IMG/VR virus record: IMGVR_UViG_3300025247_000003
Location: 1 to 54,854 of that record
DNA: 54,854 nucleotides
Reading direction: 5' to 3' (one strand)
DNA from: a virus
Lineage: Duplodnaviria; Caudoviricetes
In this document: positions 4,503 through 41,262 of the stretch, piece after piece
Numbering within the stretch: position 1 is the first letter of the stretch
Layout of the letters: each line of letters starts with the position of its first letter
Notes under the pieces: generated by a model
Seen by the model: the letters and a program-made list of their open reading frames with translations, nothing else
Database searches by the model: none
What the model was told of the DNA's origin: nothing
Position numbers and translations under genes: made by a program

Positions 4503-5033
4503 CTATACTAGACCGAGATATTTAGCGCTGTCAAGAAAAAACGCCTTAGCATCATGCGGAGCATATCCGACGATCTTTGTTCCTGATGGCGCAAACGGTA
4601 GATACCATTCGTCAGGATGCGGTCCCATGATTTGCTCGGCTTCGTCCGCTAGAATAGCATTATCCGCTGACTTGACCTCGTAAGGCTCATCTACTGGTAA
4701 ACCAAACCGCTCACAAACCGCCGCCATGATTCGGCTTTCAGCTTCCTTGTATCCAGCGATATAAGGCTTTGCGGGCTTAACAATGTCAGCAATGTAAGCC
4801 TCGCTGGCGTCGTGTAGCAGTCCCCATGCGGCGTGTTCAGACGGGCATATCTGGCTGACATATACGCTATGCTCGGAAACGCTATAGAAGCCCTTGCAGT
4901 GACCATTGAACCTACACATCATGGACAAGGCATGTGCAATGTCGTAGATGTCGATATCTTCTGGGCGGGGATCAATAGGCCAAAACTTGCGGCCTGTGAT
5001 CGTTTGCATCCAGTCGCCGTTACGCTGGGTCAT
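4503..5033 (-). CDS. HD-domain 5'-deoxynucleotidase (YfbR-like)
   Basis: DIAHALSxxCRFNGH, YSVSEHS, LLHDASEAY, D...LADE motifs. Confidence 0.85.
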   Translation of the reverse strand: MTQRNGDWMQTITGRKFWPIDPRPEDIDIYDIAHALSMMCRFNGHCKGFYSVSEHSVYVSQICPSEHAAWGLLHDASEAYIADIVKPAKPYIAGYKEAESRIMAAVCERFGLPVDEPYEVKSADNAILADEAEQIMGPHPDEWYLPFAPSGTKIVGYAPHDAKAFFLDSAKYLGLV

Positions 5034-5752
5034 ATCTCAAATAAACTCCTAGGTTGATCCGACAATCCGCCGGGGTAAATGAATAGCTTTTCCGTTGCCT
5101 TGTCGTATTTGTCATATTTTTTAGTGACGTATTTACTCACCGTCTTTTCCCAAATGCACCGCCATTCGTCCGGAGCGGTGTATTCACTAACAAACACGCG
5201 GCACCTGCTGGATAGAACAAAAGCCCATTGCCAGAATTTCTCGTGGCAAAACTCACCTCCGTAACCTGTTGTCGATGCGTACGGCGGGTCACAATATACC
5301 GTGCTTCCGTCCGGTATTTCTAGGTCAAGGTATGACATGCGGGTGAATTTTGTTCCGATTAGGCCGGGGCGCTGTTTAACCAAGTTTTTCGAGCTTCCTG
5401 CAGCATAGTTTTCTTTATGCGCATAACCACCCCAAGGCTTAGAACCGAATGAGCACGTAAAACACGCAAACCCAACAATACACGCATCATATTTATCCGG
5501 TGAACCCTTGATGTCATAGTACTCATCCTGCGTCAGCTTCTCCGGCGGCTCCCACCCATTCGCAACCGCCTCAAGCAACGCAACCGCATATTCAGCCGTA
5601 TCATTTCCCCACTTATGTTTAGCTGGCACGTTGGACAGCATGTTACCGCCACCCATGAACGGCTCGATGTACCAGTTAGATTGGTCATGCCCGTTCATAA
5701 GTATCGGTACGATATGCTTGGTGTATCGTGCTTTTGATCCCATGTAGCGCAT
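5030..5752 (-). CDS. DNA adenine methyltransferase (Dam/D12-like)
   Basis: YMGSK, EPFMGGG, YCDPPY, VSEY motifs. Confidence 0.88.
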   Translation of the reverse strand: MRYMGSKARYTKHIVPILMNGHDQSNWYIEPFMGGGNMLSNVPAKHKWGNDTAEYAVALLEAVANGWEPPEKLTQDEYYDIKGSPDKYDACIVGFACFTCSFGSKPWGGYAHKENYAAGSSKNLVKQRPGLIGTKFTRMSYLDLEIPDGSTVYCDPPYASTTGYGGEFCHEKFWQWAFVLSSRCRVFVSEYTAPDEWRCIWEKTVSKYVTKKYDKYDKATEKLFIYPGGLSDQPRSLFEI

Positions 5753-6525
5753 TAGAACAATTCCTCTTGCTTGGCGGTATTCTTAGGTGGCTCAACGAAA
5801 AACGAAGGCTGCTTATATGCGTCATCTATGCGATTACATGCTATGTCAAAGTAATCCGCGTCAAGTTCAATACCAATAAACTTACGGCCAAGTTTTGCAC
5901 ATGCTGCGCCGGTTGTTCCGCTTACCATGAATGGGTCCGCAACCGTGTCATCTTGATTTGAAAACAGAGATACCAACTCTATAATTAACGGTTCTGGTTT
6001 TTGAGTAGGGTGGACGCCACCACCTGGTGTGTTTTTGTTGTAAATGAAGTTACCCGGCCTTCCACCGCCGTTCCACTTGCTTTTCCCCTTACCGCACCAC
6101 GCAGAGACCATCATTTCATGTCCTACGCTTGGACCTTGGCCGTTGAATTGCGGCATGGCGTCAGGCTTAATCCAGACCATAGCTCTTTTGTACTTTGCGC
6201 CGCAATTCTCTATTTCGTCCCTCCACGCCCTAACGCCTTCCGCCATGCAGAATATTATTGCCCATCCGTCGCTGACACGGCAAATTTCTTTGGCAACTTC
6301 ACCGCGAACCTCGTCAATCGCCCCAAATCCTAATTCTTCGTGTCGAACGTGAGAAGATGGTGATTGTTTAGACAAAACACCCCATTTATTTTGCATGACG
6401 GCTTCATACGGCGGATCAGTAACCACAGCGTCCACCGGACCCAGAGTCGGAATTACCTCAAGGCAATCACCTTGATACAACGTACAGTCACCAATGACTA
6501 CTTTGCGTTTCCACGGATTACTCAA
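5752..6525 (-). CDS. N6A/N4C DNA methyltransferase (beta class) with altered motif I (DPFMVSG)
   Basis: GDCLE, TDPPY, HPTQKP, DPFMVSGTTG, FIGIELD motifs. Confidence 0.88.
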   Translation of the reverse strand: MSNPWKRKVVIGDCTLYQGDCLEVIPTLGPVDAVVTDPPYEAVMQNKWGVLSKQSPSSHVRHEELGFGAIDEVRGEVAKEICRVSDGWAIIFCMAEGVRAWRDEIENCGAKYKRAMVWIKPDAMPQFNGQGPSVGHEMMVSAWCGKGKSKWNGGGRPGNFIYNKNTPGGGVHPTQKPEPLIIELVSLFSNQDDTVADPFMVSGTTGAACAKLGRKFIGIELDADYFDIACNRIDDAYKQPSFFVEPPKNTAKQEELF

Positions 6526-6659
6526 AACGGCGGTTCCTCTCCAACGTATGACGGACGCCACGCCTTGTAAGGCTCTGGCTTTGGGTTGCTGGTCAAAGGC
6601 GGTATGACGCCTAACGCGCGTAGTTCCACCTCTATGTGCGTGGGTAGTTTATTCTCCAC
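6522..6659 (-). CDS. Small hypothetical protein
   Basis: GTG start overlapping the upstream gene; ends YVGEEPPF. Confidence 0.45.
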   Translation of the reverse strand: MENKLPTHIEVELRALGVIPPLTSNPKPEPYKAWRPSYVGEEPPF

Positions 6660-6927
6660 GTGCTTTTGCGAGTGCGGCGCGGGCGTTGTTGCGCCAGTCG
6701 GTGTTGCTATCCCACTCTTCCAAAGCGCGCTCCAAAGCCTCATACAGATCAGGGGCGGCGGAGATTATGTGGGCGTTTGCTTCATTATCGGTAAGTGTTT
6801 CTGCGATAATTTCATAATCAAATTCTCCCGATACAGTCTTCACGTAAATTGTCTGGTCAAAGCAACAATGACATGACTTACTCCCATCTTCAACAACCCA
6901 AGGCCCCGGCGTCCATTTCCTATTCAT
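6649..6927 (-). CDS. Phage hypothetical protein (TPGPW...AAPDLYEAL type)
   Basis: Recognisable phage motif; paralog at 39105-39326. Confidence 0.75.
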   Translation of the reverse strand: MNRKWTPGPWVVEDGSKSCHCCFDQTIYVKTVSGEFDYEIIAETLTDNEANAHIISAAPDLYEALERALEEWDSNTDWRNNARAALAKARGE

Positions 6928-6976
6928 TTTCTAACCTCCTATGGTTATATGGCGCGGATAAACCGCGCCCATAAAT

Positions 6977-7630
6977 TTACTTCCGCGTGAGAACGTACTC
7001 AACTCCATCAATCTCAACAGTCTTACCTTCACATCCGCCGTCTTTTGGTCGAATGTCAAGACCAGTAATTTCTTCAAACACATCGTAGTCGAAGTTTGGC
7101 AGAACGCGAACCATCTGGATTTCTTCTTCTGTTGCGTCCTCATATGCCTTACGCCACTCTTCGTGCCAATCGTTTACCTTGAGATACCCACCGCATGTAT
7201 GAAATGTCGGGTTGTCTATCTTTTCTTGATTGGTCATGTCGCGTTCGGAAACCCAAGTGGTGGTCGATGGACGATAAATCCAATTTGGTTTTTCGGCCTT
7301 ATCCCACACTTCTCTTTCCGTTGGAGAGTTGAAGCAATTTACCGTTGTTGGCGTTTTGGTATTGAAGTATCCCGTGTTCCAGTTGCCCGTGTTCCAGTTG
7401 CCAGTGTTACAGTCGCCCGTGTTCCGGTATCCCGTGTTCCAGTTGCCCGTGTTCCAGTCGCCAGTGTTCCGGTTGCCCGTGTTCCGGTATCCCGTGTTCC
7501 AGTTGCCCGTGTTCCAGTTGCCAGTGTTCCAGTTGCCCGTGTTACAGTCGCCCGTGTTACAGTCGCCCGTGTTCCGGTTGCCCGTGTTCCAGTCGCCCGT
7601 GTTCCGGTTGCCCGTGTTCGTGTTAGTCAT
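6977..7630 (-). CDS. NTGxx pentapeptide-repeat protein
   Basis: 17 NTG(N/D/Y)(R/W/C/F) units, then a globular domain (TCGGYLK, LPNFD..VFEEITG). Confidence 0.85.
   Translation of the reverse strand: MTNTNTGNRNTGDWNTGNRNTGDCNTGDCNTGNWNTGNWNTGNWNTGYRNTGNRNTGDWNTGNWNTGYRNTGDCNTGNWNTGNWNTGYFNTKTPTTVNCFNSPTEREVWDKAEKPNWIYRPSTTTWVSERDMTNQEKIDNPTFHTCGGYLKVNDWHEEWRKAYEDATEEEIQMVRVLPNFDYDVFEEITGLDIRPKDGGCEGKTVEIDGVEYVLTRK
7364..7618 (-). repeat. Coding tandem repeat, 17 x 15 bp
   Basis: AACAC(G/T)GG(C/A)-type units counted from the translation. Confidence 0.9.
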
Positions 7631-7689
7631 AATCATCTCCATTGGTTATCTAGTCACGTCTTGGCATGGTCGCAGCGCCCCGTCAAGAT

Positions 7690-7709
7690 AAAACCCGCCG
7701 GAGCGGGTC
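7690..7709 (-). terminator. Terminator after ssb, followed directly by a TTGACG promoter element
   Basis: GACCCGCTCCGGCGGGTTTT on the minus strand. Confidence 0.65.
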
Positions 7710-7713
7710 TATC

Positions 7714-8148
7714 TCAAAACGGGATTTCATCGTCCATAGCGTAACCGCCAGCACTAGACCCACTACCAACCGTAGTCCCGCCAGACTGATAACCTCCACC
7801 GCTAGACGATCCGGCGCTGTCTAGCATGACCATTTGACCGCAGAATCCTTGAACGACGACTTCCGTTGTGTATCGGTCGTTACCGTCTTTGTCCTGCCAT
7901 TTGCGGGTTTGAAACTTGCCGCTTACAAAAACCTTGCTTCCCTTGCGAAGATACTGTTCCGCAACGCCAGCAACAGGCCCCCAAATAGTTACTGGAACCC
8001 ATTCGGTTTTTTCACGCTTCTCGCCAGTGTTGCGGTCTTTCCATTTTTCGTTAACGGCAAGTCGGAGATTGGCGACTTTGCTATCGCCTACTGTTCTGAC
8101 TTCCGGGTCTGCGCCTAGATTGCCGATGATGTCTACTCTATTCAGCAT
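7714..8148 (-). CDS. ssb: Single-stranded DNA-binding protein
   Basis: NRVDIIGNLGADPEVR, KGSKVFVSGK, TRKW.DKDG.DRYTTEV, C-terminal DDEIPF. Confidence 0.96.
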   Translation of the reverse strand: MLNRVDIIGNLGADPEVRTVGDSKVANLRLAVNEKWKDRNTGEKREKTEWVPVTIWGPVAGVAEQYLRKGSKVFVSGKFQTRKWQDKDGNDRYTTEVVVQGFCGQMVMLDSAGSSSGGGYQSGGTTVGSGSSAGGYAMDDEIPF

Positions 8149-8296
8149 ATCCCACCACGTCCATCAACTCCTCAATAAATTCATACGCGTTCTCGATAAC
8201 CTTATCCCTCTGGTAAATTGTTTCTGGACAATGAATATCGTTTTGGTCGCGGAATTTCTCCACGATATTTTTTAGGCGGGTTTCTGTATCTTCCAT
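8138..8296 (-). CDS. Hypothetical protein (52 aa)
   Basis: Manual ORF MEDTETRLKNIVEKF... filling the gap between genes. Confidence 0.55.
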   Translation of the reverse strand: MEDTETRLKNIVEKFRDQNDIHCPETIYQRDKVIENAYEFIEELMDVVGYAE

Positions 8297-8303
8297 TAAG
8301 CCC

Positions 8304-8537
8304 CTACGCCGTCACATGCTTGACAGCCCACATGACCGCCTCTTCAATTTTTGTCTTTGCGATTGACATTTCGCGGCTTGATCCCGTTTCATCGAAATAT
8401 TCAAGAAATTCCGCACCCATGTCTTTGATCTTAGCCATAGTCGCTTTTTCATCGTCTCTCAGAACGCGATACTTGTGTCGAACAGTATTGTTAACCGTTC
8501 TCGCATCGCTTGTGCTGTCTACTGCATCCATATTCAA
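8304..8537 (-). CDS. Acb2/Tad1-like helical hairpin protein (putative cyclic-nucleotide sponge)
   Basis: YRVLRDDEKATMAKIKDMG resembles the Acb2 N-terminus; SREMSIAKTKIEEAVMW resembles the Tad1 C-terminal helix (compared from memory). Confidence 0.7.
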   Translation of the reverse strand: MNMDAVDSTSDARTVNNTVRHKYRVLRDDEKATMAKIKDMGAEFLEYFDETGSSREMSIAKTKIEEAVMWAVKHVTA

Positions 8538-8827
8538 GCCCCCAACATTCCAAGTTTCATTTCATGCGTGATGCCGCGAATGAACCAATAAATATTCTGA
8601 TACGTTGCCTTCACGGATTGCGACTTGTTCGTCGTATATCCTCGCACATTGAAAACAGCGGGCTTACCTTTCTCTGCCGGTGTAATGCTTACCAACTTCA
8701 TGCTAGAAAACGGTTGCCCTTTCGTGCGACCGATATGACGCCGCGATGTGCGTTCAATCGGTGCAGGTTCAGGTTTATTGGCGCGGCGTTCGTTTGCGCG
8801 TCGTTGCTGGCGTGTCATCTTACTCAC
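8534..8827 (-). CDS. Basic hypothetical protein
   Basis: ORF, overlaps neighbours. Confidence 0.65.
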   Translation of the reverse strand: MSKMTRQQRRANERRANKPEPAPIERTSRRHIGRTKGQPFSSMKLVSITPAEKGKPAVFNVRGYTTNKSQSVKATYQNIYWFIRGITHEMKLGMLGA

Positions 8828-9423
8828 AGCGGCACCTCATCATCATCAATATCCGGTTTATCAGCTTCTTCTACCATCTTTTTCAACTCATCCATATGCG
8901 GTTTAACTGCCTCCCTTTTATCGGCGTTCTCTCTCCACCACTGAGTAAACGCGTCCTTCCCCTTCATAGCTGCGTCCTTGGCTGATTGCAAAGCGGCGTC
9001 TGGGTCAAACCGTGGATCTGCTTTTCCACCCATCACAAGAGGCTGGATTGTAACCGTGCCCTTTTTACCACGTGTCTTTGTAAGCTGCAATGCACGAGGC
9101 TTATCTAGTCCCTCCATGTGTGAAACCCGAATCCCGCCCACCGCAGCGCCCGCCCATGTTACGGTCGGGTCATTGTAGATCGTGCAATGCATACCAACCC
9201 ATTGCGCCGCATTTGGCCCCCAGATTGAGGCAAGGCAACGGGCGGCGGTTTTGCAAGGCTTCCAGGGTTTATTGTCGTCGCCATCGAAGTAAACCCAAAT
9301 CGGCTGCTCGCCATCACTTACCTTTACGTCACGAATACGGATCGTCATAGGTCCGGTGATAAGGCTATCGGCGTTGAGTTGGTCACTCTTGGGGGCGATT
9401 GCTTTGGTTACGTCAGTTGTCAT
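8824..9423 (-). CDS. Conserved phage protein, candidate single-strand annealing/ssDNA-binding protein
   Basis: KSDQLNAD...KPWKPCK...VGGIRVSH; SSB-like acidic tail DDDEVPL; lies downstream of two exonuclease genes and upstream of ssb. Confidence 0.6.
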   Translation of the reverse strand: MTTDVTKAIAPKSDQLNADSLITGPMTIRIRDVKVSDGEQPIWVYFDGDDNKPWKPCKTAARCLASIWGPNAAQWVGMHCTIYNDPTVTWAGAAVGGIRVSHMEGLDKPRALQLTKTRGKKGTVTIQPLVMGGKADPRFDPDAALQSAKDAAMKGKDAFTQWWRENADKREAVKPHMDELKKMVEEADKPDIDDDEVPL

Positions 9424-10105
9424 TTTCTTGCCTCCTTTTAATTTCCCGAGCCGCGTTCCATTTAAGATCGTATTCCATATCTGTTTGTCGCGTCATCCAG
9501 TTAAGAAAACCTTCCTCCACATCAGGCCATTTATATCCTCGAAACTTTCCGATTGTGCATTTAGGCATTATCTTTGGCTCTTTAGTCCACGAGACCATTT
9601 GCTTTCCAGTGATACCTTCATCAAATAGCGCTTTCAAAATCCATGCCGTAACATATGCGTCAGGGCCTGCCCTATGCGCAGGTTGCGTCTTTTCGTGCTC
9701 TGGATTGATCTTTCCTTGATCTTCAAGCCAATACCGCAATCCACCGTTGCTATGTGTTGGCGCATCCGGCCAAACCCGTAGAGCGGCCTTATATGTGCAG
9801 ATGAAAGGTTTAGGCGTAGAGAAGAATTTCAACTCAAAGTCTGCATTATGTGCGCAGAAAACCGTTACATTGTCATCGTCCATCGTATCAACATCAAACG
9901 GCGGCATTCCGTCGCATTCCGACTTACTGATATGATGCACCGCGCGAACGTCTGGTGGCATGGCGTCCACACCACAAAGCCAAGACATGTATTCGCCAAC
10001 GCTTCCGTCACCTACATCATAGTCACAATAAGCCGCCTCACATACTTGTGCGACAGGCGGTTCAAATCCTGTAGTCTCGAAGTCAATTACTCGGACGATG
10101 CTCAT
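9413..10105 (-). CDS. DEDDh 3'-5' exonuclease (ExoX-like)
   Basis: VIDFETTG, AHNADFE, AHRAGPD, C-terminal GKFRG..W motifs. Confidence 0.88.
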   Translation of the reverse strand: MSIVRVIDFETTGFEPPVAQVCEAAYCDYDVGDGSVGEYMSWLCGVDAMPPDVRAVHHISKSECDGMPPFDVDTMDDDNVTVFCAHNADFELKFFSTPKPFICTYKAALRVWPDAPTHSNGGLRYWLEDQGKINPEHEKTQPAHRAGPDAYVTAWILKALFDEGITGKQMVSWTKEPKIMPKCTIGKFRGYKWPDVEEGFLNWMTRQTDMEYDLKWNAAREIKRRQENDN

Positions 10106-10794
10106 TCAAAATATACCTCCGTCTCTGGTTGTTCTCGCTCAGTCTCAATCACAACGCCAGCATTAGCCAACCGCTCTTGATACTCGAACATTTTATCCTG
10201 CACTTGCTTTTCAAATCCAAGCGCGGCCTCGGTAATTGCCTCCTGATATTTCTCATCACGTCCGCAGCGAATAACCCACATAGGCATACCGCCGCAATAG
10301 CTGATATAGTCGATGTAATCCCATCCCGTGACCATTAGTCCAGTCTGCAATTGCAGCATGTGTTCGGTCGGGATTTCATTGTCTGTGATGACTTGAAGTT
10401 GGTATTTCTGACGCCTGCTCTTGCACTCAATGCCGAAATTACTCATCACGCCAGCGCCATCTGGACTATAACCAATGGTCACGCCGCCAATGTCTCGCGT
10501 GATGAATCCCAATTCATCTACGGGTTCATAGTGTTCGGAATATGCGTCACGGGCTTTTACCTCGTCCACATGACCGCGCAGCATGTCGTCTGACACGTAT
10601 TGAGGCTCGGTGTATCCGGTGATGCGTTGCGCGGCCAACTCATATACGTGGGTGCGGGTTTTCTCGTTGTTGGCGATCTTGAGTGTCGGCGTCAGGATCA
10701 AATTAACCTCTGACGCGGTTAGAAGTCCGTTGCGGGCTTCATGCCATTCGGGGGAACCTTGTTCGACGTTATGGATGGTGCATTGGGGGTGCAT
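10102..10794 (-). CDS. YqaJ/lambda-type exonuclease
   Basis: QGSPEWHEARNG.LTAS, YSPDG, IECK, QLQTGL motifs. Confidence 0.9.
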   Translation of the reverse strand: MHPQCTIHNVEQGSPEWHEARNGLLTASEVNLILTPTLKIANNEKTRTHVYELAAQRITGYTEPQYVSDDMLRGHVDEVKARDAYSEHYEPVDELGFITRDIGGVTIGYSPDGAGVMSNFGIECKSRRQKYQLQVITDNEIPTEHMLQLQTGLMVTGWDYIDYISYCGGMPMWVIRCGRDEKYQEAITEAALGFEKQVQDKMFEYQERLANAGVVIETEREQPETEVYFE

Positions 10795-11054
10795 TATTTT
10801 TCCTCCGGTTGGGTGGGGAGCGGCATCCAATGGGTTGGTTCGGCAACAATACTGTCGCCATGCGTTTCGGAGTTTCCTATAATCCACCCTTTAAGCGGGT
10901 CGTGGAATCCTATAGCCGACCTGTCAAACGCGTAATTTGTCTGGTAGGTTTCACCTTCATCCCAAAAAACTCCGCCACCAACCAACACGGCTGGTCCAGT
11001 GTTTATTCCCTTACCGTGCGGGGCAGTCTCAATTGGTTGCCATTCCATCCTCAT
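10794..11054 (-). CDS. DUF551-like phage protein
   Basis: WQPIETAP...PTHWMPLP. Confidence 0.75.
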   Translation of the reverse strand: MRMEWQPIETAPHGKGINTGPAVLVGGGVFWDEGETYQTNYAFDRSAIGFHDPLKGWIIGNSETHGDSIVAEPTHWMPLPTQPEEK

Positions 11055-11086
11055 CGCCTCCTATGCGATCAATTAATTCCTGCCAC

Positions 11087-11115
11087 GTCTTACACCCATA
11101 CTGAGCCGCTGTCAA
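11087..11115 (-). promoter_or_regulatory. Sigma70-type promoter of the recombination operon
   Basis: TTGACA-17-TAAGAC on the minus strand. Confidence 0.6.
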
Positions 11116-11182
11116 TGCCTCTGATTTTTCGCGTGAAACGTTGCAACCCTCTGCAACTATGGCCGCGCGTTCGATCACTTCA

Positions 11183-11596
11183 TCAAGGGTCAAGTCGTTC
11201 GCCATTACACACCCTTACCGCATCATCGGCAGACCTACAGAAACCGCTCAAACCACCGTCGCGCGAAACTGCTTCATGCCATCTTAGTTGTTCTTTAGTG
11301 GCTCTGCCTTTTGCGGTTTTAATCTCCCACGACGCAAACCGCGCGAACGTTTGCCCAACCATATCTTTCGTGATTTCAGTCGGAACCCAACCGATCCGAT
11401 CCGCGCTACCCTTCATTAAACCGAAGTCAATGAATCTCGGGTTTTCCAAGACAACGTATCGTTTACCGTTTTTCGTATATTCTTCGGTTTTCTTACCGGA
11501 CCATGCTTTTCCGACGTTGTTGCGGAACGACTTTCCGCCTGCCCTTGAAATGGCTAGGGCGGCGTCGTTTGATACGTTGGCCTCTGATCGTTTCAT
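11183..11596 (-). CDS. VRR-NUC domain nuclease
   Basis: FRNNVG, GSAD.IG, EIKT.KGR...EQ motifs. Confidence 0.88.
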   Translation of the reverse strand: MKRSEANVSNDAALAISRAGGKSFRNNVGKAWSGKKTEEYTKNGKRYVVLENPRFIDFGLMKGSADRIGWVPTEITKDMVGQTFARFASWEIKTAKGRATKEQLRWHEAVSRDGGLSGFCRSADDAVRVCNGERLDP

Positions 11597-11763: not shown

Positions 11764-12095
11764 CAATCGTCACGTCGAGAAAGAAAGAACGATCCGCATG
11801 GAGACATAACGCTAAAGCTGGATTGATGAAGTTTACGACACAGAAACTCGCCTAGGTCTTTAGCTTTTTCTGTGATATCCTCTTGGTCAGTCGGAAACCT
11901 AGCGTAGTTTATCATGGTGACTTTTACGCCTTTTTCTTGACCTCCAGTATATACATACTCACATTCAAACACACTAACGCATAAACCTGACAAGCAATAT
12001 TCGGAGCAGTAGTGCTTTGCTAAATCTGAATTACCCGCGATGTAAATGTCCGCTTGTCCATATTCGCATTGAATTTCTGTGAATTCTTCTTTCAT
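11763..12095 (-). CDS. Conserved phage hypothetical protein
   Basis: YVYTGGQE.G...MINYARFP; coupled to the PAPS-reductase-like gene. Confidence 0.7.
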   Translation of the reverse strand: MKEEFTEIQCEYGQADIYIAGNSDLAKHYCSEYCLSGLCVSVFECEYVYTGGQEKGVKVTMINYARFPTDQEDITEKAKDLGEFLCRKLHQSSFSVMSPCGSFFLSRRDD

Positions 12096-12856
12096 TTCCA
12101 CTTCTCCTCGCAAAAGAACCCGCAATCTAGGTCCATTGATTTCAAGTCTTGCCCTTTTGCATGTTCTGGCAATTCATCAAGGAACATTCTTTCTCCGTTC
12201 CACCTAACCAATTTAGCCCCAATATCTCTTGACACTTCGCAAAGATGATTGAACCTTTCCGGCGAAATTCTCCTAATAAGGTTCCAGTAGGTCGCGCTAG
12301 TAGCCTTTACACACCCAATGCAGTTTGCGTTTGGCATTCCTAAGTCATACGCAGCAGACATTTTAAGACCGATTGCGTTCATCATCTTTCCGCAATCATC
12401 TTTGGTCATCATTCGGTCAATTAGAATTGGCAACACGTTTTCACGCTCAGTAAGTGTGAAATTTTCATGCCTTTCCTTTTCGTCATAGGTGAACCCCATA
12501 ACATGCCAGTCAGCGTGATTATTGCTTTCCCAAAACTGACGGGCTTTCTTCTTTAACTCACCTGTGCATGGCGCACCATATGGCGACGACATAAACCGGC
12601 GATTTTCAAAAACGTCAAATATTGAGCATTCCGGCCAATCTGGATTTATGACAATTTCAATATCTCGACCTAAATATTCCGAAAGGTCGCGAACAAAACG
12701 CTGATTGTCTTCGTGTTCCTCTTTGATCGGATTGTTAAGTAAGCGAATATCGCAAAGGTTTCCATATTGGCGGCATGTCAAAATTGCAGCCGCAGCGCTT
12801 GCCGCCCCACAACTTACCCATACGGCAATCACGTCACCTTCTTTTGGCTCACTCAC
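12092..12856 (-). CDS. PAPS reductase-like (adenine nucleotide alpha-hydrolase) protein
   Basis: PP-loop-like SCGAASA, PCTGELKK, GFT.DE..R, NANCIGCVK, C-terminal DCGFFC. Confidence 0.75.
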   Translation of the reverse strand: MSEPKEGDVIAVWVSCGAASAAAAILTCRQYGNLCDIRLLNNPIKEEHEDNQRFVRDLSEYLGRDIEIVINPDWPECSIFDVFENRRFMSSPYGAPCTGELKKKARQFWESNNHADWHVMGFTYDEKERHENFTLTERENVLPILIDRMMTKDDCGKMMNAIGLKMSAAYDLGMPNANCIGCVKATSATYWNLIRRISPERFNHLCEVSRDIGAKLVRWNGERMFLDELPEHAKGQDLKSMDLDCGFFCEEKWK

Positions 12857-25031: not shown

Positions 25032-25401
25032 TATAAACAATATATATCTCCCGCTGCAAACGATTGCGGTTCCCCAAGACAACGACGCTACTCTTGAATT
25101 TACGTATCAGGATCAGGATGGAAACCTACTTGACCTAACCGGCGTTTCGGAGATTGATTTCGTTGTTTTTACGTCTATCGATGGAACGGCTGAAATTGAG
25201 AAAACATATACGGGTGGGGATATCGTAATATACGGTAATGACTACCAATTCTCGGTTCCTATTACAGACCTTGACACGCAAGGCCTGACAAACCGTCTTT
25301 CATATCATGAATGTCGCGTTACGAATAGCGATGGCGAAAAACGCACGGTTTCCGCTGGAATTTTCCGTTGTGAAAAAACTTATATATGGAGTAACTTGTA
25401 G
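25024..25401 (+). CDS. Virion adaptor-like beta protein (BppU-N-like)
   Basis: D.DG...DLTG pattern, beta-rich; coupled to the fibre gene. Confidence 0.6.
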   Translation: MTNINNIYLPLQTIAVPQDNDATLEFTYQDQDGNLLDLTGVSEIDFVVFTSIDGTAEIEKTYTGGDIVIYGNDYQFSVPITDLDTQGLTNRLSYHECRVTNSDGEKRTVSAGIFRCEKTYIWSNL

Positions 25402-28331
25402 TGCCTCTCACTGTATGGAACGCAACTATTCAGGATGATGCTGGCAACGCTGTGCCACTGCCGGTCGTTACAGTCCGCAAGTTTTCCGACGATAGCCTTG
25501 CGACAATATTTAATATTGATGGCGATGAGATTGGTAATCCAATTGAAGGGACAGAAGAAGGTTTTGTTCAATTTCAAGTACATCCCGGTAAATATAAGGT
25601 AGAAGGCGCTAAGGACGGATCAAACGCACAAACTTGGATCATTGATCGGACGCAAGGCGTTTATTTTGAAACGCGTTCAGAGTTTGTAACTGCCGCGCCT
25701 GATATGGCACCTGTTGTCGGTATGGTTGTTAGTGCCGGGGGCGTCTCCTACGAATACGACGGCACCACGACCGCCATCAGCGACATGTCAGGCTGGAGGC
25801 CTTGGCGACTGGTCACGCTCCGCCACTTCGGCGCCCCGCTGAACGGGACAGATGATGACCTCTCCGCGTTCCAGGCAACATTGACCTATGTCGGCGCCAA
25901 TGGCCTGCGGAAGGCTAAGCTTTTGCCGGGCGACGACCTGCGCCTTGAGGGCACTGCGTTTGTCCGTCACGACAACGTTCAAGTTGATGCGCGAGAAGCT
26001 ACACGCTGCCGAGTGATCGGTCACACCTTCCCGGCTATCTCATGCTCTGACCCTGACGACGGAACCGTCGCGGCGGACAATTTCTGGCTGCGGGGCGGCG
26101 ATTGGGAGCAGACCACGACGCTCGCCAACATGACGGATACGACTTTCTATCCCGGTTCAGACGTGTCCGACCAGAAGGTCGCGGGGCTCGTGCACCACGG
26201 GAAGCTTGCCGGGAAAACGATCAAGATCACCGAAACCAAGCGGGTGCAGAATTTCATTCACGTCCTGTCGCAATTCGCAGATTGGGAGAATGCAGACGAC
26301 GCCGGCGGCACCATCATTTTCGAGAACAACCAGGAATGCCGGGGCAACAACTTCGGCGTCTGGGATCACGGTGTCGACAGGGGGGTATGCCGGTTCAACA
26401 ACTTCTACGGCACGGTCGGCGTCATCGAGGGTGGCGGGTCCGTTCTCCCGCCGCACCCCTGGTATGGTTCGAACTTCCGCAACCTGTCTGGGCATTACAT
26501 CTTTGAAGGCAACCACGACGAGGGTTATTCGTATGGCTCCACCTTCAAGCTGAAGCGCGCGCAATCGGCCCACTTCGCCAACAACACTGGCGATGGGGTG
26601 CCCACTCTGATCGACTGTCTTCTCGTGGATAAGGTCACCGGCGGCGGCAACATTCACAGGAACGGCTCTGACGATCCGACCCTTACTGGCTCTGGCGGTA
26701 TCTGGATCCGGGGTTGCCGGAAGGACTCGCACGGGATCAACCTTGTCGGCAACGTGATCGATGCAGTTGCGCCCGATGTAAACGCCGTGACGGCCCAGGG
26801 CTTCTTTGGGCCCCGGACCATCGACACCATCACGCTCGGCGCTACGACCACGATCAGCTTTACCAGCATCCACGACTTCATCACCGGCGATACGGTCATC
26901 ATCGACGACGCCGGGGGCGTGACGGAGCTGGAGGGCAACGTCTACACCATCACGGTTGTCGATTGGGAAACCATCACCCTCGACGGCGTGGACAGCACGG
27001 CCTACACGGCGCACTCTTCAGGCGGCACTGTCGATTTCAACCGGCCCGACTATGTGGCGCATGGCTTTATCGAGGCGTCGGGGACGTCCTACAACAACGA
27101 CTTCTTCGTATCGGTCGATGACGACAACAAGGGCTTCTATGTCAAAGTCCAGCTGCTGCATATCTCCGACGATTCCGGCGGGAACATCTTCACCTGTCAG
27201 CGCAACGACAGCAACTACAACCCGGATGGCACGGTGTTTGAGCTTGGCCGCTTGACCATGGATACCCCCGGCACTGTGGTTCTCCTCTATGCAGAGCCCG
27301 GCGCGTCGAATGTGCTCTGCAAGTATGACAGCCGGATGAGCGATGCGACGGCTCACACCCTTTCAGGGTCGGGTGGTTATACGGTGGTTGATGCAGCAAA
27401 CCTTCCGGATGCTCCTGCACAAGACAATCCTTATGACGACACAACCGGGTCTAACCTTGTGGTCGGAAGCCTCGGGGTCGGCAAGAAGGTCGGAAGCTTC
27501 TACAATATCGATGACGGAAATGATGAGCTGACAACCGGATTCTTCGGCGGCGGCGGATCAGGAGCCACAAACTTCCCGTCGGGTGGAAGCCGGTTCGGTC
27601 CGATGCTCAACATCAACAGGGGCGTGTCGTCCACGACCTTCACGCAGCTTCGCCTGTTCTTCGATGTGGGCACAGGTGAAAAGACCATCTGGCTACAGGA
27701 CAGCGACGAATCCACCGTCGGCGGAGGGTTCACCTGGTACGATCCGGTGATGCTTCTGAGCCAAGACACCGTGAATGCGTTCGGGCTTAAAAGCACATCA
27801 GGTGCCCTGAACCTTGAAGCCGAAGCGGCAGGCGATGACATCAACCTAATTGGTGATGGTACGACGCGGCTGACCGTGGACGGCACGACCGGTGAGTTCG
27901 TCTTCAACAGCCTTGCAGGCGCGGAGTTGATGCGCCTGACGGACAGCGGGAACCTTGGGATTGGGACGAACGCGGCCAACCAAAAGTTCCAGATCGTCGC
28001 CTCCGACCCTCGGATATCCATTGTCGACAGCGACGGAAGCGAGGAGTTCCAGCTTCGCCAGAACGCGGAAGTCACGCTTTACCGCGCGCTGGAGGCAGAT
28101 GGCGCCCACAAGTTCTACACCGGCGGCAACACCCTAAGAGGGTCAATAACGACCTCTGGCGTTGGGGTGGGGACGGATACGTTCGGAACCAGTGCCGTCA
28201 ACGTGCTGGCCGTTGCCAACGGCACTGCGCCGACGACCTCCCCGACTGGCGTTGGTCAGCTTTATGTCGAAAGCGGCGCGCTGAAGTACCGGGGCGCTGG
28301 CGGCACCATCACCACACTTGCACCAACCTAA
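25401..28331 (+). CDS. Fibre/tailspike protein 1 (beta-helix region, GNLGIGT fibre motif)
   Basis: HFGA..GTDDDLSAFQ beta-helix cap; FCCH-like insert (HDFITGDTV.I....GVTELEG..YTI); N-terminus paralogous to 28603. Confidence 0.8.
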   Translation: MPLTVWNATIQDDAGNAVPLPVVTVRKFSDDSLATIFNIDGDEIGNPIEGTEEGFVQFQVHPGKYKVEGAKDGSNAQTWIIDRTQGVYFETRSEFVTAAPDMAPVVGMVVSAGGVSYEYDGTTTAISDMSGWRPWRLVTLRHFGAPLNGTDDDLSAFQATLTYVGANGLRKAKLLPGDDLRLEGTAFVRHDNVQVDAREATRCRVIGHTFPAISCSDPDDGTVAADNFWLRGGDWEQTTTLANMTDTTFYPGSDVSDQKVAGLVHHGKLAGKTIKITETKRVQNFIHVLSQFADWENADDAGGTIIFENNQECRGNNFGVWDHGVDRGVCRFNNFYGTVGVIEGGGSVLPPHPWYGSNFRNLSGHYIFEGNHDEGYSYGSTFKLKRAQSAHFANNTGDGVPTLIDCLLVDKVTGGGNIHRNGSDDPTLTGSGGIWIRGCRKDSHGINLVGNVIDAVAPDVNAVTAQGFFGPRTIDTITLGATTTISFTSIHDFITGDTVIIDDAGGVTELEGNVYTITVVDWETITLDGVDSTAYTAHSSGGTVDFNRPDYVAHGFIEASGTSYNNDFFVSVDDDNKGFYVKVQLLHISDDSGGNIFTCQRNDSNYNPDGTVFELGRLTMDTPGTVVLLYAEPGASNVLCKYDSRMSDATAHTLSGSGGYTVVDAANLPDAPAQDNPYDDTTGSNLVVGSLGVGKKVGSFYNIDDGNDELTTGFFGGGGSGATNFPSGGSRFGPMLNINRGVSSTTFTQLRLFFDVGTGEKTIWLQDSDESTVGGGFTWYDPVMLLSQDTVNAFGLKSTSGALNLEAEAAGDDINLIGDGTTRLTVDGTTGEFVFNSLAGAELMRLTDSGNLGIGTNAANQKFQIVASDPRISIVDSDGSEEFQLRQNAEVTLYRALEADGAHKFYTGGNTLRGSITTSGVGVGTDTFGTSAVNVLAVANGTAPTTSPTGVGQLYVESGALKYRGAGGTITTLAPT

Positions 28332-28499: not shown

Positions 28500-28603
28500 C
28501 GTGGAATAGTCCATCACCAAATTTTGGCGATGTCATCGCAGCGGCGGTCGTATCGCTCGGGTGGCTATTCCGCTCTGAAAATACGTATATTTGGAGTATA
28601 TAA
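28496..28603 (+). pseudogene. Chimeric remnant ORF (holin-like start fused to adaptor-gene end)
   Basis: MTWNSPSPNFGDVIAAAVVSLGWL-FRSENTYIWSI*; the end matches FRCEKTYIWSNL* of 25024-25401. Confidence 0.55.
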
Positions 28604-31125
28604 TGGCACTTATCCCTTGGCAGGCCACAATTCAGGATGACGGAGGTAATGCTGTTCCTTTGCCAGTTGTCACTATTCGTAAAGCAAGTGACGACACTTT
28701 GGCAACCGTTTATGACATTGACGGTGTTGAGGCAGACAATCCTATTAATGGAGACCTTGAAGGGTTTGTTCAATTCCAAGTCCAACCGGGCAAATACAAT
28801 ATCGAGGGTGCGAAAGGCGGCTCTGTAACTAGCTCTTGGACTATCAATGAAACTCAAGGAGCTTACTTTGAAACTAGTGATGAATTCGTAGACGCCGCCC
28901 CGTCTATGGCTCCGGTTTCTGGTATGACTGTGAATGCCGAGGGTGTATCATACGAATACGATGGAGAAAGTGAATCAATATCCACGCTACCCGGCTGGAA
29001 GCCATTCGGGTATTCTCCGTCATCGAAAATAACCATGTCGGTTGCACAAGGGCTTTACTTGTCGAGTGGTACGAAGTCTGTATCATTGTCTGGTCGGTCT
29101 GTTGCTGGTGATTGCGGCACATCTGCAATGTTCAAGCGTGTGGATTCTGAGCCGTCGCATGATGCTAAGTTCCGTAGCGCTGATCGGTACATTTCAGACG
29201 GCACGACAAGCGCATCCAATGGCGGCTGGTGGGAGAAGGTCGTAGGCGACGATGGCATTGTCGTGCCGTGGTATGGGCCTTGTGACACTGACGCAAATCG
29301 GCGCTCAACGACCAGCGCGGCGTATACCCATTGGTCCACGCTCAACAGCACGGCTTATGGTGACCAAGACCCTAACGCGGACGCATGCAAGCTGTATTGG
29401 CCAAACATTAGTGGGCTTGATTTTTTCGATTTGGGCACCCCGCTCACGATAACGACAGTAGGTTCTTACAATGAGTTTCAGGGCGCCGGTAATGGGATGT
29501 TCCTACGGAATATCCAGTTCGTCATGGAAGATAGATACTTCCAGTGGCATGGGTTTCATGTCGATGGCGATGTCGGGGCAACGGAAGACGATTACCTAGA
29601 TGTTGTGACCCTTGGCACTGACAACGGTCGTGCCGATATGTTCAGCATCCGCGACTACCTTCTCTATAAATGCGGTGTGTGCTTCAAGGCTCAGGATGTG
29701 GCCGGTGGGTACATTGGGCCGGGCGTCATCCGCAAATGCAAGCAGTCGCTCACGCTGGAAAGCCAAGATGTTGAGACGAACCCTCAAGCGTCCGGCGATC
29801 TTCTTATCGACCATCAGGTGTGCTGGAACCTGATCGACTACGGGTACGAGATCAAAGGCACTGGAGAAGTGAAAATGAACGGCGTGTCATGCTTCGACAG
29901 CAACAAGCCCAACATCCTCATCCGTGGCTCTGGTAGCGAACGAGCTATCCAGATGTACTTCACGGACTGCACGTTCACTATCGGCAACGACGACCTTACC
30001 GACCGCAGCAGCACGACCATCACCTCGATCACCGACAACGGCTCCGGTGACGTTCGGATCAACTATGCGTCCGGATCTTTCCCCTATATCTTCGAGGGGA
30101 TGCGCCGTCTCGAAATCGAGTTCGACAGCGTTTACGACACGGGCGACCTTCCCGGCGACTGGCACATTACCAACGTGACCAGCTCGTCGTTCGACATTCC
30201 GGACATGTCCTACATCTCGGATGCAACTGGAACCGTCTGGCACTGTGGCTGGAACATCGTCGTGGACAGCGACAGCAGCGACGACAGCGGGTACGTCAAG
30301 ACGGACACCTATGATATCCATTTCGTTCAGACGAAGTGTAATTCGGTGTTCATCGGCAAGGCTGACAACGTCAACTGGATCGGCTCTGCGGTGGGCCCGC
30401 AGATCTATGTGTCTGAAGACTGCCTTGGGTTCACGCACATCGGCTCGACGCTCTGGCGCGTCGGCGAGAAGGGCGTGGACAGCTACAGCCTGCCGATCAG
30501 CGGCCCTGGCAAGTGGGCTTCCATATCGAACCTGCGGGACGCCGACGGTAACTTCGGTGCCGTCATCGAGACACCGGCCAGTGATGCTGAATATGACACG
30601 GCTGGGAAGTTCAACCTTCCCAGCAAGGTCAACGGGTTCGAAGTCACTGACGCCGGGGTGAAGATCAAGGGAGAGAACCTGAGCACGCCTACCCTGTCTC
30701 GGTCGAGCGCTTATCTCAGCGGCACATCCGATAACGTAATAGGCAGTGACGGTACGTATTATACAATCGTTTTCGATACAGAGCTTTACGATGTCGGTGA
30801 CGTCTACAACGACAGCACCGGGGAATTCACTGCGCCATTCGCCGGTCTATACGAGGTGAAGGCGGCTGTTGCGTTCAACCAGATCACTGGGGCCGATTAC
30901 ATTCGGGCGCGCATCAAGACAACTGATCGAAATTTCGACGTATACAAAGAAGTTCCGGGATCATGTGATCGTGATGTTATCACCTTGGTGCAAGATGTCG
31001 TTCTAGAAGCTAGCGATACCATCATTATTCAAGCTGCGTGCTCCGGTCTTGCTGGGGACACAGCGGATGTAATTGGGGGAGACCCAACAGTTACTTCGTT
31101 CTTCACGGTACGCAGGGTGGGGTAA
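28603..31125 (+). CDS. Fibre/tailspike protein 2 with C-terminal C1q-like domain
   Basis: N-terminal ~135 aa paralogous to fibre 1; C-terminal IVFDTELYD...YN.STGEFTAP..GLY. Confidence 0.8.
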   Translation: MALIPWQATIQDDGGNAVPLPVVTIRKASDDTLATVYDIDGVEADNPINGDLEGFVQFQVQPGKYNIEGAKGGSVTSSWTINETQGAYFETSDEFVDAAPSMAPVSGMTVNAEGVSYEYDGESESISTLPGWKPFGYSPSSKITMSVAQGLYLSSGTKSVSLSGRSVAGDCGTSAMFKRVDSEPSHDAKFRSADRYISDGTTSASNGGWWEKVVGDDGIVVPWYGPCDTDANRRSTTSAAYTHWSTLNSTAYGDQDPNADACKLYWPNISGLDFFDLGTPLTITTVGSYNEFQGAGNGMFLRNIQFVMEDRYFQWHGFHVDGDVGATEDDYLDVVTLGTDNGRADMFSIRDYLLYKCGVCFKAQDVAGGYIGPGVIRKCKQSLTLESQDVETNPQASGDLLIDHQVCWNLIDYGYEIKGTGEVKMNGVSCFDSNKPNILIRGSGSERAIQMYFTDCTFTIGNDDLTDRSSTTITSITDNGSGDVRINYASGSFPYIFEGMRRLEIEFDSVYDTGDLPGDWHITNVTSSSFDIPDMSYISDATGTVWHCGWNIVVDSDSSDDSGYVKTDTYDIHFVQTKCNSVFIGKADNVNWIGSAVGPQIYVSEDCLGFTHIGSTLWRVGEKGVDSYSLPISGPGKWASISNLRDADGNFGAVIETPASDAEYDTAGKFNLPSKVNGFEVTDAGVKIKGENLSTPTLSRSSAYLSGTSDNVIGSDGTYYTIVFDTELYDVGDVYNDSTGEFTAPFAGLYEVKAAVAFNQITGADYIRARIKTTDRNFDVYKEVPGSCDRDVITLVQDVVLEASDTIIIQAACSGLAGDTADVIGGDPTVTSFFTVRRVG

Positions 31126-38127: not shown

Positions 38128-38204
38128 TGGTGCATCCGGTGTGATTTGAACACACGATCAACCCGTTATGAGCGGGCGGCTTTAGACCGCTAAGCTACGG
38201 ATGC
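38128..38204 (-). tRNA. tRNA with CAT anticodon (Ile2-like or Met), CCA encoded
   Basis: GCATCCG ta GCTT..AAGC c GCCCG CTCATAA CGGGT tgatc GTGTG TTCAAAT CACAC CGGATGC A CCA: complete cloverleaf. Confidence 0.92.
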
Positions 38205-38211
38205 TAATACC

Positions 38212-39108
38212 CTAAAACAACTCCGGCTTCAATTCCTTGATACGCAAGGTACAAAACCGTTGCAACGTCTTAAAGTCAATCTTCGGATTCTTGTGTGCCT
38301 TTATGATATTGAACGTATCTTCTGTAATCAAGTCATACCAGACGCGGCCCAGCAGTTCCCCAATGTATTTGCTTTGCCAGTCGCCTTTATCGTTGACAAT
38401 TTTAGCATGTGTCTTGTCAACAAGGTGTTGCGTAACAAATTCCTCGCAAATCTTTTCTTCCAGCATCATGCCGCCAACCTCTGGTGCACCCATTTCTGCG
38501 TGGTGCTTTTCCTTAAAGTGATTAGCGATGATCTTGGCCCAGGTAACGCGACCGAATTTGTTCTGCCAATGGTAATTCTTAATCACTACGCCTTCGCCAA
38601 ACCCTTTTCCTTGTTCAATGCCGAACGTGTTTTTCTCTAGGCACTTCTCGTATGCTTCGTAACACCCGTTTCGGATGATCGCGATAGGCGGAAGGAAGTC
38701 AACGTCATGGGCACGCATGTAATGGCTGTAATCCTCATAATGAAGCAGTTTACCTTGTTCTTGATCGTAAACATCGAACACAAAGAACCGACTCCACATA
38801 TCGTCACGGTAGGTTTTCAGGCTATGAGGTACAAGCCATTCGCCGTAAAGCGTATGGTGAGGGTTCGCTGAGAGATAACTTGAAATTGCGGTATTTTCTT
38901 GCATCGCAGCCATAAAGCCAGCGTTATCGCTACCAATCGATAGAACACGGTTGCGTGAACCACATCCGATTGATCCATCATCATTAAGCCAAACTTGACC
39001 ATTTGTGCCGTCCAGTTTCGGGAAAACATAAGTCTGGCCAAATTCAATCCCGTCAACCTCGTCCGTTCCGAAGCGTTCAAGATGCATGTATTTGTGGAAT
39101 TTTGTCAT
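38212..39108 (-). CDS. RNA ligase (Rnl2-like nucleotidyltransferase)
   Basis: Motif I PKLDGTN; GSRNR; LYGEW; FFVFDV; GEGVVIK; WAKI. Confidence 0.82.
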   Translation of the reverse strand: MTKFHKYMHLERFGTDEVDGIEFGQTYVFPKLDGTNGQVWLNDDGSIGCGSRNRVLSIGSDNAGFMAAMQENTAISSYLSANPHHTLYGEWLVPHSLKTYRDDMWSRFFVFDVYDQEQGKLLHYEDYSHYMRAHDVDFLPPIAIIRNGCYEAYEKCLEKNTFGIEQGKGFGEGVVIKNYHWQNKFGRVTWAKIIANHFKEKHHAEMGAPEVGGMMLEEKICEEFVTQHLVDKTHAKIVNDKGDWQSKYIGELLGRVWYDLITEDTFNIIKAHKNPKIDFKTLQRFCTLRIKELKPELF

Positions 39109-40682: not shown

Positions 40683-41262
40683 TGTCGTCTCCCAAGGCGG
40701 CGCGGCGCTTTTCCAACTGGGCTTTCAGTGCGCCAATCTTTGCGGGGAACATGTCTCTCGCCGCTTCAAGCATGGCGTTTGCAAATTCGAGCTCCTCTTT
40801 CAGCCTGTCCCTCTCCGCCTCCGCCTTTAGCTGTGCTTCATATGCGTCTTGTGCTTGGCCTAGGGTGGTGAGGACTTGAAGCGCCTGTTCCCGGTTCTCT
40901 GCCTGTAGGGCTTCGATGCGGGCATTCAGCGCTCCAATCGTGTCTGACGGGGTGCCGCCGTTTGACCTGCCAACGGTCAGGTAGAAGGGCTCCCCTTCGT
41001 GGCTCAGGTTCATGGTTACGTAATTACCGGCGGTATGGCCCGCTTCTTCCGGGGCAGCAACCATGTGCGCAAGGTGCATTGCCATAAGTGGCACGAAGTC
41101 CGAGCTTAGAACAAACTCACCACTCTCGAAGCGAGCAAGGCGGAAATCACCGTCGTTGCTTTTCACCCATTGCTCAAAGCCAAGAGGCGTTTCGTCGTTC
41201 GACACCGCATTCTTCCAGGCTTCAAGCGCCTCTTTGTTTTCCTCAATTCGCAGATCACTCAT
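40675..41262 (-). CDS. Hypothetical protein with coiled-coil C-terminus
   Basis: GGAGG before ATG 41262. Confidence 0.65.
   Translation of the reverse strand: MSDLRIEENKEALEAWKNAVSNDETPLGFEQWVKSNDGDFRLARFESGEFVLSSDFVPLMAMHLAHMVAAPEEAGHTAGNYVTMNLSHEGEPFYLTVGRSNGGTPSDTIGALNARIEALQAENREQALQVLTTLGQAQDAYEAQLKAEAERDRLKEELEFANAMLEAARDMFPAKIGALKAQLEKRRAALGDDNG

Follow-up and report, generated by a model that had tools for sequence, protein, structure and literature searches.

The locus and its gene call

The window analysed here is the whole of an IMG/VR virus record, 54,854 bp in length, which is 100% complete according to CheckV, carries 99-bp direct terminal repeats and has a G+C content of 50.8%. 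On its minus strand, the list of open reading frames contains an ORF at positions 8304..8537, for which an earlier note, made from the sequence alone, had given a product of 77 aa. This ORF is indeed present and encodes 77 aa if a TTG start codon is used; its start was amended in the present work. The TTG at 8537 overlaps the TGA stop codon of the upstream gene, and an ATG is found two codons further inside the frame, at 8531. A GGGGG run read from the sequence at 8539..8543 (minus strand), a putative Shine-Dalgarno element, is located 7 nt before the ATG and only 1 nt before the TTG, a spacing that favours the ATG. As the closest relatives are also 75 aa long and begin at the same methionine, the ATG at 8531 is taken as the most likely start. 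The coding sequence of the predicted Acb2-type sponge then covers 8304..8531 (minus strand), with the ATG at 8531-8529 and the stop codon (TAG/TAA) at 8306-8304, and residues are numbered throughout on this 75-aa protein (Met at 8531 being residue 1).

Immediately upstream lies a 97-aa ORF of no known family (8534..8827, minus strand). Its TGA stop codon is positioned 2 nt before the sponge ATG, which suggests that both genes are co-transcribed. Downstream, a 52-aa ORF, again of no known family (8138..8296, minus strand), starts 8 nt past the sponge stop codon and overlaps the start of the gene for the single-strand DNA-binding protein SSB (7714..8148, minus strand; Pfam SSB, E 9.1e-32; phrog_44). 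These genes are part of a minus-strand block that extends between about 17.4 and 0.7 kb, in which genes abut or overlap, and the sponge gene lies inside the early replication and recombination genes. The block before it encodes a primase, a helicase, a PAPS-reductase-like protein, a VRR-type nuclease, a YqaJ exonuclease, an RNase T-type exonuclease and a phrog_11517 protein; it continues through the 97-aa ORF, the sponge, the 52-aa ORF and SSB to a pentapeptide-repeat protein and two DNA methyltransferases, and it also encodes a dNMP phosphatase, a dUTPase, a ribonucleotide reductase and a thymidylate synthase. Promoter-like sites, which are consensus matches only, were seen on the minus strand at 18.2 and 17.4 kb.

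The plus-strand block carries the terminase, portal, protease, capsid, tail and lysis genes. The portal protein shares 39% identity with the portals of Rhizobium phages and of the Aminobacter phage Erebus and, since the named relatives of the sponge also come from Alphaproteobacteria, an alphaproteobacterial host is likely. Pfam and PHROG scans of the 95 ORFs of the window revealed no other known sponge or anti-CBASS family, and nothing was recovered when positions 6500-11500 were compared by megablast with 50,697 phage records.

Several other features of the window were recorded. Two genes away from the sponge, a 221-aa protein (6977-7642, minus strand) contains N-T-G-[ND]-[WRC] pentapeptide repeats in its N-terminal half (Pfam Pentapeptide_2, E 5.6e-20; phrog_14105, E 5e-51). 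As pentapeptide-repeat proteins can mimic DNA, this one may be a further candidate for an anti-defence role. Two DNA methyltransferase genes lie side by side at 5030-6561 (minus strand); one is of the D12-class and Dam-like, the other is of the N6/N4 type, and they probably shield the phage from restriction. Within the plus-strand structural block, two minus-strand islands (38128-39108 and 41255-41992) carry genes for a tRNA-Met (38128-38204), for an RNA ligase (Pfam E 5.1e-17) and for a protein whose match to the Lar restriction-alleviation family is weak and sub-threshold; the tRNA and the ligase suggest tRNA repair against anticodon nucleases. Between portal and protease, two very large ORFs of 976 and 844 aa (25401-28331 and 28591-31125, plus strand) matched nothing in PHROG and gave only weak Pfam scores below the threshold. 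Finally, the 254-aa protein encoded at 12092-12856 (minus strand), between the helicase and a phrog_4848 gene, matched the phage "PAPS reductase" family phrog_424 (E 7e-35) and no Pfam family at E 0.01 or better.

The protein belongs to the Acb2 branch of the Acb2/Tad1 hairpin family

The earlier note had proposed that the protein resembles the sponges Acb2 and Tad1, phage proteins that sequester the alarm nucleotides of bacteria, and had named an HMM search against these families as a check. When this search was carried out, the protein matched the Pfam family PF24729 (Acb2/Tad1 hairpin domain) with an E-value of 5.1e-20 and 71.9 bits, along positions 1-57 of the 58 in the model, the curated cut-off of the family being 27 bits; the same domain was detected in the virus record at 8310-8474 by a genome search. 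With a match so far above the cut-off, the resemblances read from the sequence are attributable to homology and not to chance. PHROG searches returned families of unknown function only (phrog_717, E 1.9e-7; phrog_1454, E 2e-6).

Used as a single sequence against the PDB, the protein gave weak matches to Acb2 homolog 43 (E 0.096) and to Vs.4 of phage T4 (E 0.12). A profile was built from 60 relatives (alignment A1) and run against the same database, and it recovered T4 Vs.4 (7uq2, E 1.1e-4), Acb2 of phage PaMx33 (8h2j/8ixz, E 5.2e-4), Acb2 homolog 43 (9ptq, E 4.5e-3) and Tad1 of a C. botulinum prophage (7uav and others, E 0.028). The gapless alignment with Acb2 given in the earlier note was recovered in the match to 8h2j, where Y-R-x-L...I-K-D-x-G of the query falls on G-Y-R-D-L...V-K-E-L-G. 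Likewise, the Tad1-like second helix was found again in the match to 7uav, in which S-R-E...E-E-A-V-M-W is placed on S-S-R-E-N...E-E-A-L-M-W.

The label "Acb2/Tad1-like" was nevertheless kept only in its first half. The family match and the best solved folds (Vs.4 and Acb2, see below) are those of an Acb2, and the N-terminal antiparallel beta-sheet domain of Tad1 was not found: only 20 residues precede the hairpin, the structural model is strandless and its TM-scores with Tad1 chains are 0.30-0.43. On the absence of this domain, the protein is assigned to the Acb2 branch of PF24729 and not to Tad1. As an annotation this is routine, relatives being already named "Acb2/Tad1 domain-containing protein" in the databases.

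Residues that contact ligands in solved sponges are conserved

The helix 1 stretch of the protein reads Y-R-V-L...I-K-D-M-G and the helix 2 stretch S-R-E-M-S-I-A-K-T-K-I-E-E-A-V-M-W. In the profile alignment, Y21, L24 and K36 are mapped without gaps onto Y11, L14 and K26 of the 8h2j chain; the Tyr and Lys are thus 15 residues apart with the same spacing as the Acb2 pair, as had been noticed at the outset. Y21 (8469-8471) and L24 (8460-8462), both on the minus strand, are located just N-terminal of helix 1 and K36 (8424-8426) is inside it; all three are equivalent to residues of the Acb2 dinucleotide pocket. In the second helix, R53, S56, I57 and T60 correspond to R67, A70, I71 and T74 of PaMx33 Acb2. 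Furthermore, the alignment with 7uav places the R-x6-T pair of Tad1 (R90/T97 in CbTad1) on the same R53 (8373-8375) and T60 (8352-8354).

The roles of these residues are described for PaMx33 Acb2, in which Y11 stacks on the bases and K26 forms a salt bridge with the phosphates of cyclic dinucleotides, and in which the Y11A or K26A substitution abolishes the binding of these ligands (PMC10312549; see also 10.1101/2025.08.24.671296 for the residues of this pocket). cA3 occupies a different, three-fold pocket, where its phosphates are gripped by R67 and T74; binding of this ligand is lost in R67A and reduced in T74A (PMC10312549). In Tad1, the R-x6-T pair (CbTad1 R90/T97; CmTad1 R88/T95) is reported to bind cA3 and to be required for the hexamer (10.1101/2023.11.15.567273).

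Conservation was followed in two sets, the 120 best word-indexed matches and 149 of the 150 best cluster representatives. The representative left out, P0160, is a TPR/CHAT-like repeat protein of 1630 aa in which 10 stretches had matched spuriously. Y21, L24, K36, R53, T60 and W68 are present in 120/120 close relatives. Among the 149 representatives, Y21 and K36 are each kept in 147, R53 in 137, T60 in 128, L24 in all 149 and W68 in 148. At the sequence level, the Tyr/Lys of the Acb2 dinucleotide pocket and the Arg/Thr of its trinucleotide pocket are thus retained here and are nearly invariant in the relatives listed. Within the Acb2 family, the Arg and Thr of the trinucleotide pocket vary. Their retention is in itself insufficient for cA3 binding, as the D61R variant of T4 Acb2 still fails to bind cA3 (PMC10312549). 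The earlier note had extended the possible ligands to type III signalling molecules; PaMx33 Acb2 binds neither cA4 nor cA6, nor cyclic mononucleotides, and that proposal was narrowed to cA3 alone.

A short protein with a conserved N-terminal arm

That the protein is shorter than Acb2 between the helices was borne out by the profile alignment, in which 24 residues are inserted at this place in PaMx33 Acb2 and 10 in T4 Vs.4, with none here. The inserted region of PaMx33 Acb2 contains the E64 kink, which widens the cA3 pocket (PMC10312549). The C-terminal tail is absent as well: the protein stops 8 residues past the conserved Met of helix 2, the C-terminus of the subfamily being K-H-[VI]-T-x. On the tail of PaMx33 Acb2, P90 makes a base contact and closes the dinucleotide pocket. 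Such a tail is not universal in the family, being described as missing from Acb2_43 and from many of the short homologues that have been assayed (10.1101/2025.08.24.671296).

At the other end, residues 1-20 (8472..8531, minus strand) form an arm that lies outside the Pfam hairpin model and is predicted with a pLDDT of about 55. Its residues R11, N14, N15, R18 and H19 are found in 120/120 close relatives and in 139-145 of the 149 representatives. This arm is a candidate for an extra wall or lid of the predicted ligand pocket. The suggestion that the ligand range might differ from that of known sponges therefore seems reasonable, given the absence of the P90-bearing tail, the conservation of the arm and the varied range of the published short homologues. 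A stronger version of this idea can be put forward only tentatively: the 75-residue clade would be a stripped-down sponge with a rebuilt pocket, in which the arm (R11/N14/N15/R18/H19) replaces the C-terminal lid of Acb2, and a minimal hexamer would take up an unusually broad or altered range of signals, either dinucleotides, trinucleotides and gcADPR together or one that no known sponge binds. We consider this rather doubtful.

The same arm bears on the question of which defence the protein counteracts. In Acb2_43, residues T4-V7 of the N-terminal strand, together with K19 and K55, bind 3'cADPR, and this homologue inhibits no CBASS system (10.1101/2025.08.24.671296). By analogy, the oligomer formed by the present protein could accommodate 3'cADPR (gcADPR) in a pocket to which the N-terminal arm contributes, and could act mainly or only against Thoeris, with little or no activity on CBASS. 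Acb2_43 has the same size and two-helix plan, its second helix aligns with that of the query, the Lys near the end of this helix falls on K71, and the arm is strongly conserved; moreover, 10/46 of the Acb2 homologues assayed in the same work inhibited type I Thoeris. However, helix 2 is the only part of Acb2_43 that aligns, so the N-terminal comparison is one of position and not of alignment, and the AF2 model is strandless at both ends. The near invariance of the Tyr, Lys, Arg and Thr of the CBASS pockets argues for selection on the binding of cyclic oligonucleotides. A function restricted to Thoeris is thus regarded as improbable, and a sponge directed at CBASS nucleotides is preferred.

Predicted fold and self-association

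The two-helix architecture announced in the earlier note was reproduced by the AF2 model computed from alignment A1 (mean pLDDT 83.7, pTM 0.66). Helix 1 covers residues 26-49 (8385..8456, minus strand) and helix 2 residues 53-74 (8310..8375, minus strand), the latter holding R53, T60 and W68; both were predicted with a pLDDT of 95-97. Residues 1-20 are of low confidence and no beta strand is seen at either end of the model.

When the model was compared with the PDB by Foldseek, ranks 1-8 were all occupied by Vs.4 or Acb2 chains (probability 0.92-0.99, TM 0.51-0.67), and Tad1 chains ranked below them. No PDB match reached E 0.001 and every E-value was above 0.2, so that the information lies in the ranking rather than in the E-value. 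VIA-align, with which 240 of the 252 Foldseek chains were re-scored, also placed Vs.4 first (Z 7.2, rmsd 1.9, 63 aligned residues, 29% identity), followed by two Acb2 entries (Z 7.1 and 6.7), and gave unrelated generic hairpins a Z of at most 6.4 over 51-53 residues; a Z of about 7 can be reached by plain helical hairpins and is not decisive for helical folds. In the BFVD, the first four matches and most of the first 14 bear the name "Acb2/Tad1 hairpin domain-containing protein" (E 0.011-0.17, probability 0.99-1.00).

In addition, four copies of the protein were co-folded with two molecules of 3'3'-cGAMP. The ipSAE values obtained were 0.47, 0.46 and 0.23 (median 0.46), to be compared with 0.00 for the best of three controls; the pass mark used was calibrated on solved structures and is reached by 20/30 homo-pairs and by 1/23 single chains. 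The runs share at least 38% of their contacts, with a partner pLDDT of at least 65. The confident interface extends along both helices (residues 31-75) and includes W68, which packs against E54, M55 and I57 of the adjacent copy. This four-copy prediction supports self-association, to which a hexameric state would be added by analogy with the solved sponges. The result may owe something to memory of the solved Acb2 hexamers.

Distribution of the clade and variability of its neighbours

Of the 2223 candidates given by a word-indexed search, 2219 qualified as relatives (E ≤0.001). Identity to the query is 69-100% in the best 120, several of which are named "Acb2/Tad1 domain-containing protein" in NCBI or UniRef. 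An exhaustive search of the 50% cluster representatives gave 891 at E ≤0.001 and 266 at ≤1e-10. In IMG/VR, at least 570 viral loci encode a relative, among the 596 pattern matches listed. Named relatives were found in Sphingomonas, Brucella/Ochrobactrum, Mesorhizobium, Rhodopseudomonas and Altererythrobacter. Some representatives are longer (100-285 aa): among P0135, P0147, P0157, P0132, P0162, P0185 and P0244, some have an N-terminal region of 150-210 aa joined to the hairpin and others have hydrophobic tails past the usual stop, and these may be either true fusions or read-through artefacts of gene calling.

Only 4 of 50,697 GenBank phage records, representing three distinct phages, carry the gene; these are Dunaliella viridis virus SI2, Sinorhizobium phage Aussie and a Caudoviricetes sp. 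The best match to a deposited phage or virus is in SI2 (HQ332136.1/NC_023841.1, 17440-17655). This 37-kb record is filed with an algal host but, as it carries this gene of alphaproteobacterial phages, may really belong to a phage of an associated bacterium.

When 23 genes of the window were searched by tblastn against 80 related viral loci, the N6/N4 methylase was found in 4 of them, the primase in 3, the SSB and the dNMP phosphatase in 2 each, the helicase in 1 and the remaining 17 genes in none; the genes flanking the sponge gene in the window recur in 0-2 of the 80 loci. In the loci sampled, the neighbours vary and include an integrase, a repressor, a terminase, an endolysin, a ParB-methyltransferase and Sak4. 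A fixed operon partner was considered and dropped, as no recurrent neighbour emerged when the 138 ORFs flanking the gene in the first 38 of the 80 loci were compared with PHROG. This lack of conserved neighbours is the pattern of a mobile accessory gene.

These data bear on the possibility that a hairpin with the family sequence performs another task, for instance as a structural component or regulator of replication or as a buffer for a host housekeeping nucleotide, and is not an immune sponge. The place of the gene between recombination genes and SSB would fit such a role, and the four GenBank records annotate the gene only as "hypothetical protein". On the other hand, a gene whose neighbours change from locus to locus behaves as an accessory gene and not as part of a replication module, and its best-conserved residues correspond to the ligand contacts of the solved sponges. 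A role outside immunity is therefore considered very improbable, which leaves a sponge of defence signals as the reading to be developed.

Position relative to the published homologue panel

A preprint survey of 2025 covers 9141 Acb2 homologues, gives 4204 non-redundant ones in its Table S1 and assayed 46 Acb2 proteins (10.1101/2025.08.24.671296). Short homologues were reported there to differ in their ligand range. A text search of Table S1 for EEAVMWAVKH, the 17-residue helix-2 string, RHQYR, RHEYR and YRVLT gave no match; AVMWAVK matched seven times, always in other clusters, and AKTKIEE once, in a Tad1. In Table S2, EEAVMW, AKTKIEE, YRVL and MWAVKH were not found. Judged by this motif text search, which is not proof of absence, the clade seems to be absent from the panel.

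The nearest of the assayed proteins, as judged by eye, is homologue no. 13 of Table S2, which has 80 aa and a long N-terminal arm and has in common with the query, again by eye, the motifs Y-R-x-L, I-K, R-x6-T and E-E-x-V-M-W-A. It is recorded in that table as positive against type I Thoeris, cUA CBASS and cGAMP CBASS. One could therefore imagine a dual sponge that takes up both classes of signals and protects against CBASS and Thoeris alike, all the more so as Tad1, with the same hairpin, is reported to do both (10.1101/2023.11.15.567273). The likeness with no. 13 is, however, a visual reading of the supplement; by sequence the two proteins fall into separate clusters, with RHQYR, RHEYR and EEAVMWAVKH missing from Table S1, and PaMx33 Acb2 is described as neither binding gcADPR nor inhibiting Thoeris (10.1101/2023.11.15.567273). 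We regard dual activity as unlikely, if somewhat less so than an action on Thoeris alone, and retain a sponge for CBASS nucleotides as the preferred explanation.

Proposed function

The reading that we favour, with a probability of about 0.7, is that the gene encodes a short Acb2-type homo-oligomeric sponge for the cyclic di- and trinucleotides of CBASS, expressed from the early block of a complete tailed phage. The computed support consists of the family membership, the hairpin fold, the conservation of four ligand residues, the phage context and a predicted self-interface that passes its controls; from these we infer the hexameric state, the binding of ligands and the host systems that are blocked.

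According to this proposal, the early replication and recombination block would express the 75-residue helical hairpin, which would associate with itself to form an oligomer, a hexamer if the solved sponges are taken as a guide. Cyclic dinucleotides, 3'3'-cGAMP for example, would be gripped between two protomers, with Y21 stacking on the bases and K36 forming a salt bridge with the phosphates, and trimers would probably hold cyclic trinucleotides (cA3, cAAG) through R53 and T60. The signals would in this way be kept from the CBASS effectors, so that abortive infection would be stopped and the phage could replicate. Some caution seems advisable about CBASS as the target, by comparison with the solved sponges, as the P90 tail and the 24-residue insert are missing and the short homologue Acb2_43 inhibits no CBASS.

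Sponges decide the survival of phages against CBASS, Thoeris and related signalling defences. Sponge proteins are also described as the bait sensed by Panoptes-type decoy systems, and by analogy a sponge of 75 aa could, like the others, trigger such systems. The interest of the present clade is that it is abundant, minimal and apparently outside the panel assayed so far. The binding profile and the structure of one of its members would define the minimum size of an Acb2 sponge and the role of the N-terminal arm, and would point to the defences that phages of soil and plant-associated bacteria must beat.

Comparison with known sponges

Tad1 of the C. botulinum prophage (7uav, 7uaw, 8kbe) has its second helix, S-R-E...T...E-E-A-x-M-W, in common with the query. 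It differs by its length of about 125 aa and by the N-terminal beta-sheet domain that forms its gcADPR pocket, in place of which the query has only the 20-residue arm.

Acb2 homolog 43 (9ptq; Hadary et al., 2025 preprint), with 76 aa, follows the same minimal two-helix plan and has no insert. Its helix 2 aligns with the query profile, and its helix 1 and N-terminus did not. It differs from the query by short beta strands at both ends, and from the function proposed here by its binding of 3'cADPR and its lack of CBASS inhibition (10.1101/2025.08.24.671296).

PaMx33 Acb2 (p26; 8h2j, 8h2x, 8h39, 8ixz) is a member of the same PF24729 family and is likewise encoded by a phage. Helix 1 is aligned without gaps, including its Tyr, Leu and Lys, helix 2 has the R-x6-T pair in common, and the folds match over 63 residues (Z 7.1, rmsd 1.8). 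Compared with its 93-94 aa, the 75-aa query lacks the 24-residue insert with the E64 kink and the P90 tail, and is about 10 residues longer at the N-terminus, where the conserved R/N/N/R/H arm is found.

T4 Vs.4 (Acb2; 7uq2) ranks first among the solved proteins in the profile search (E 1.1e-4) as well as in the fold comparison (Z 7.2), and A-K-T-K...E-A-x-M-W-A of helix 2 is common to both proteins. The query has neither the 10-residue insert nor the C-terminal QP tail of Vs.4. At the position of the trinucleotide-pocket Arg, Vs.4 has an Asp and is reported to bind no cA3 (PMC10312549), whereas the query keeps the Arg.
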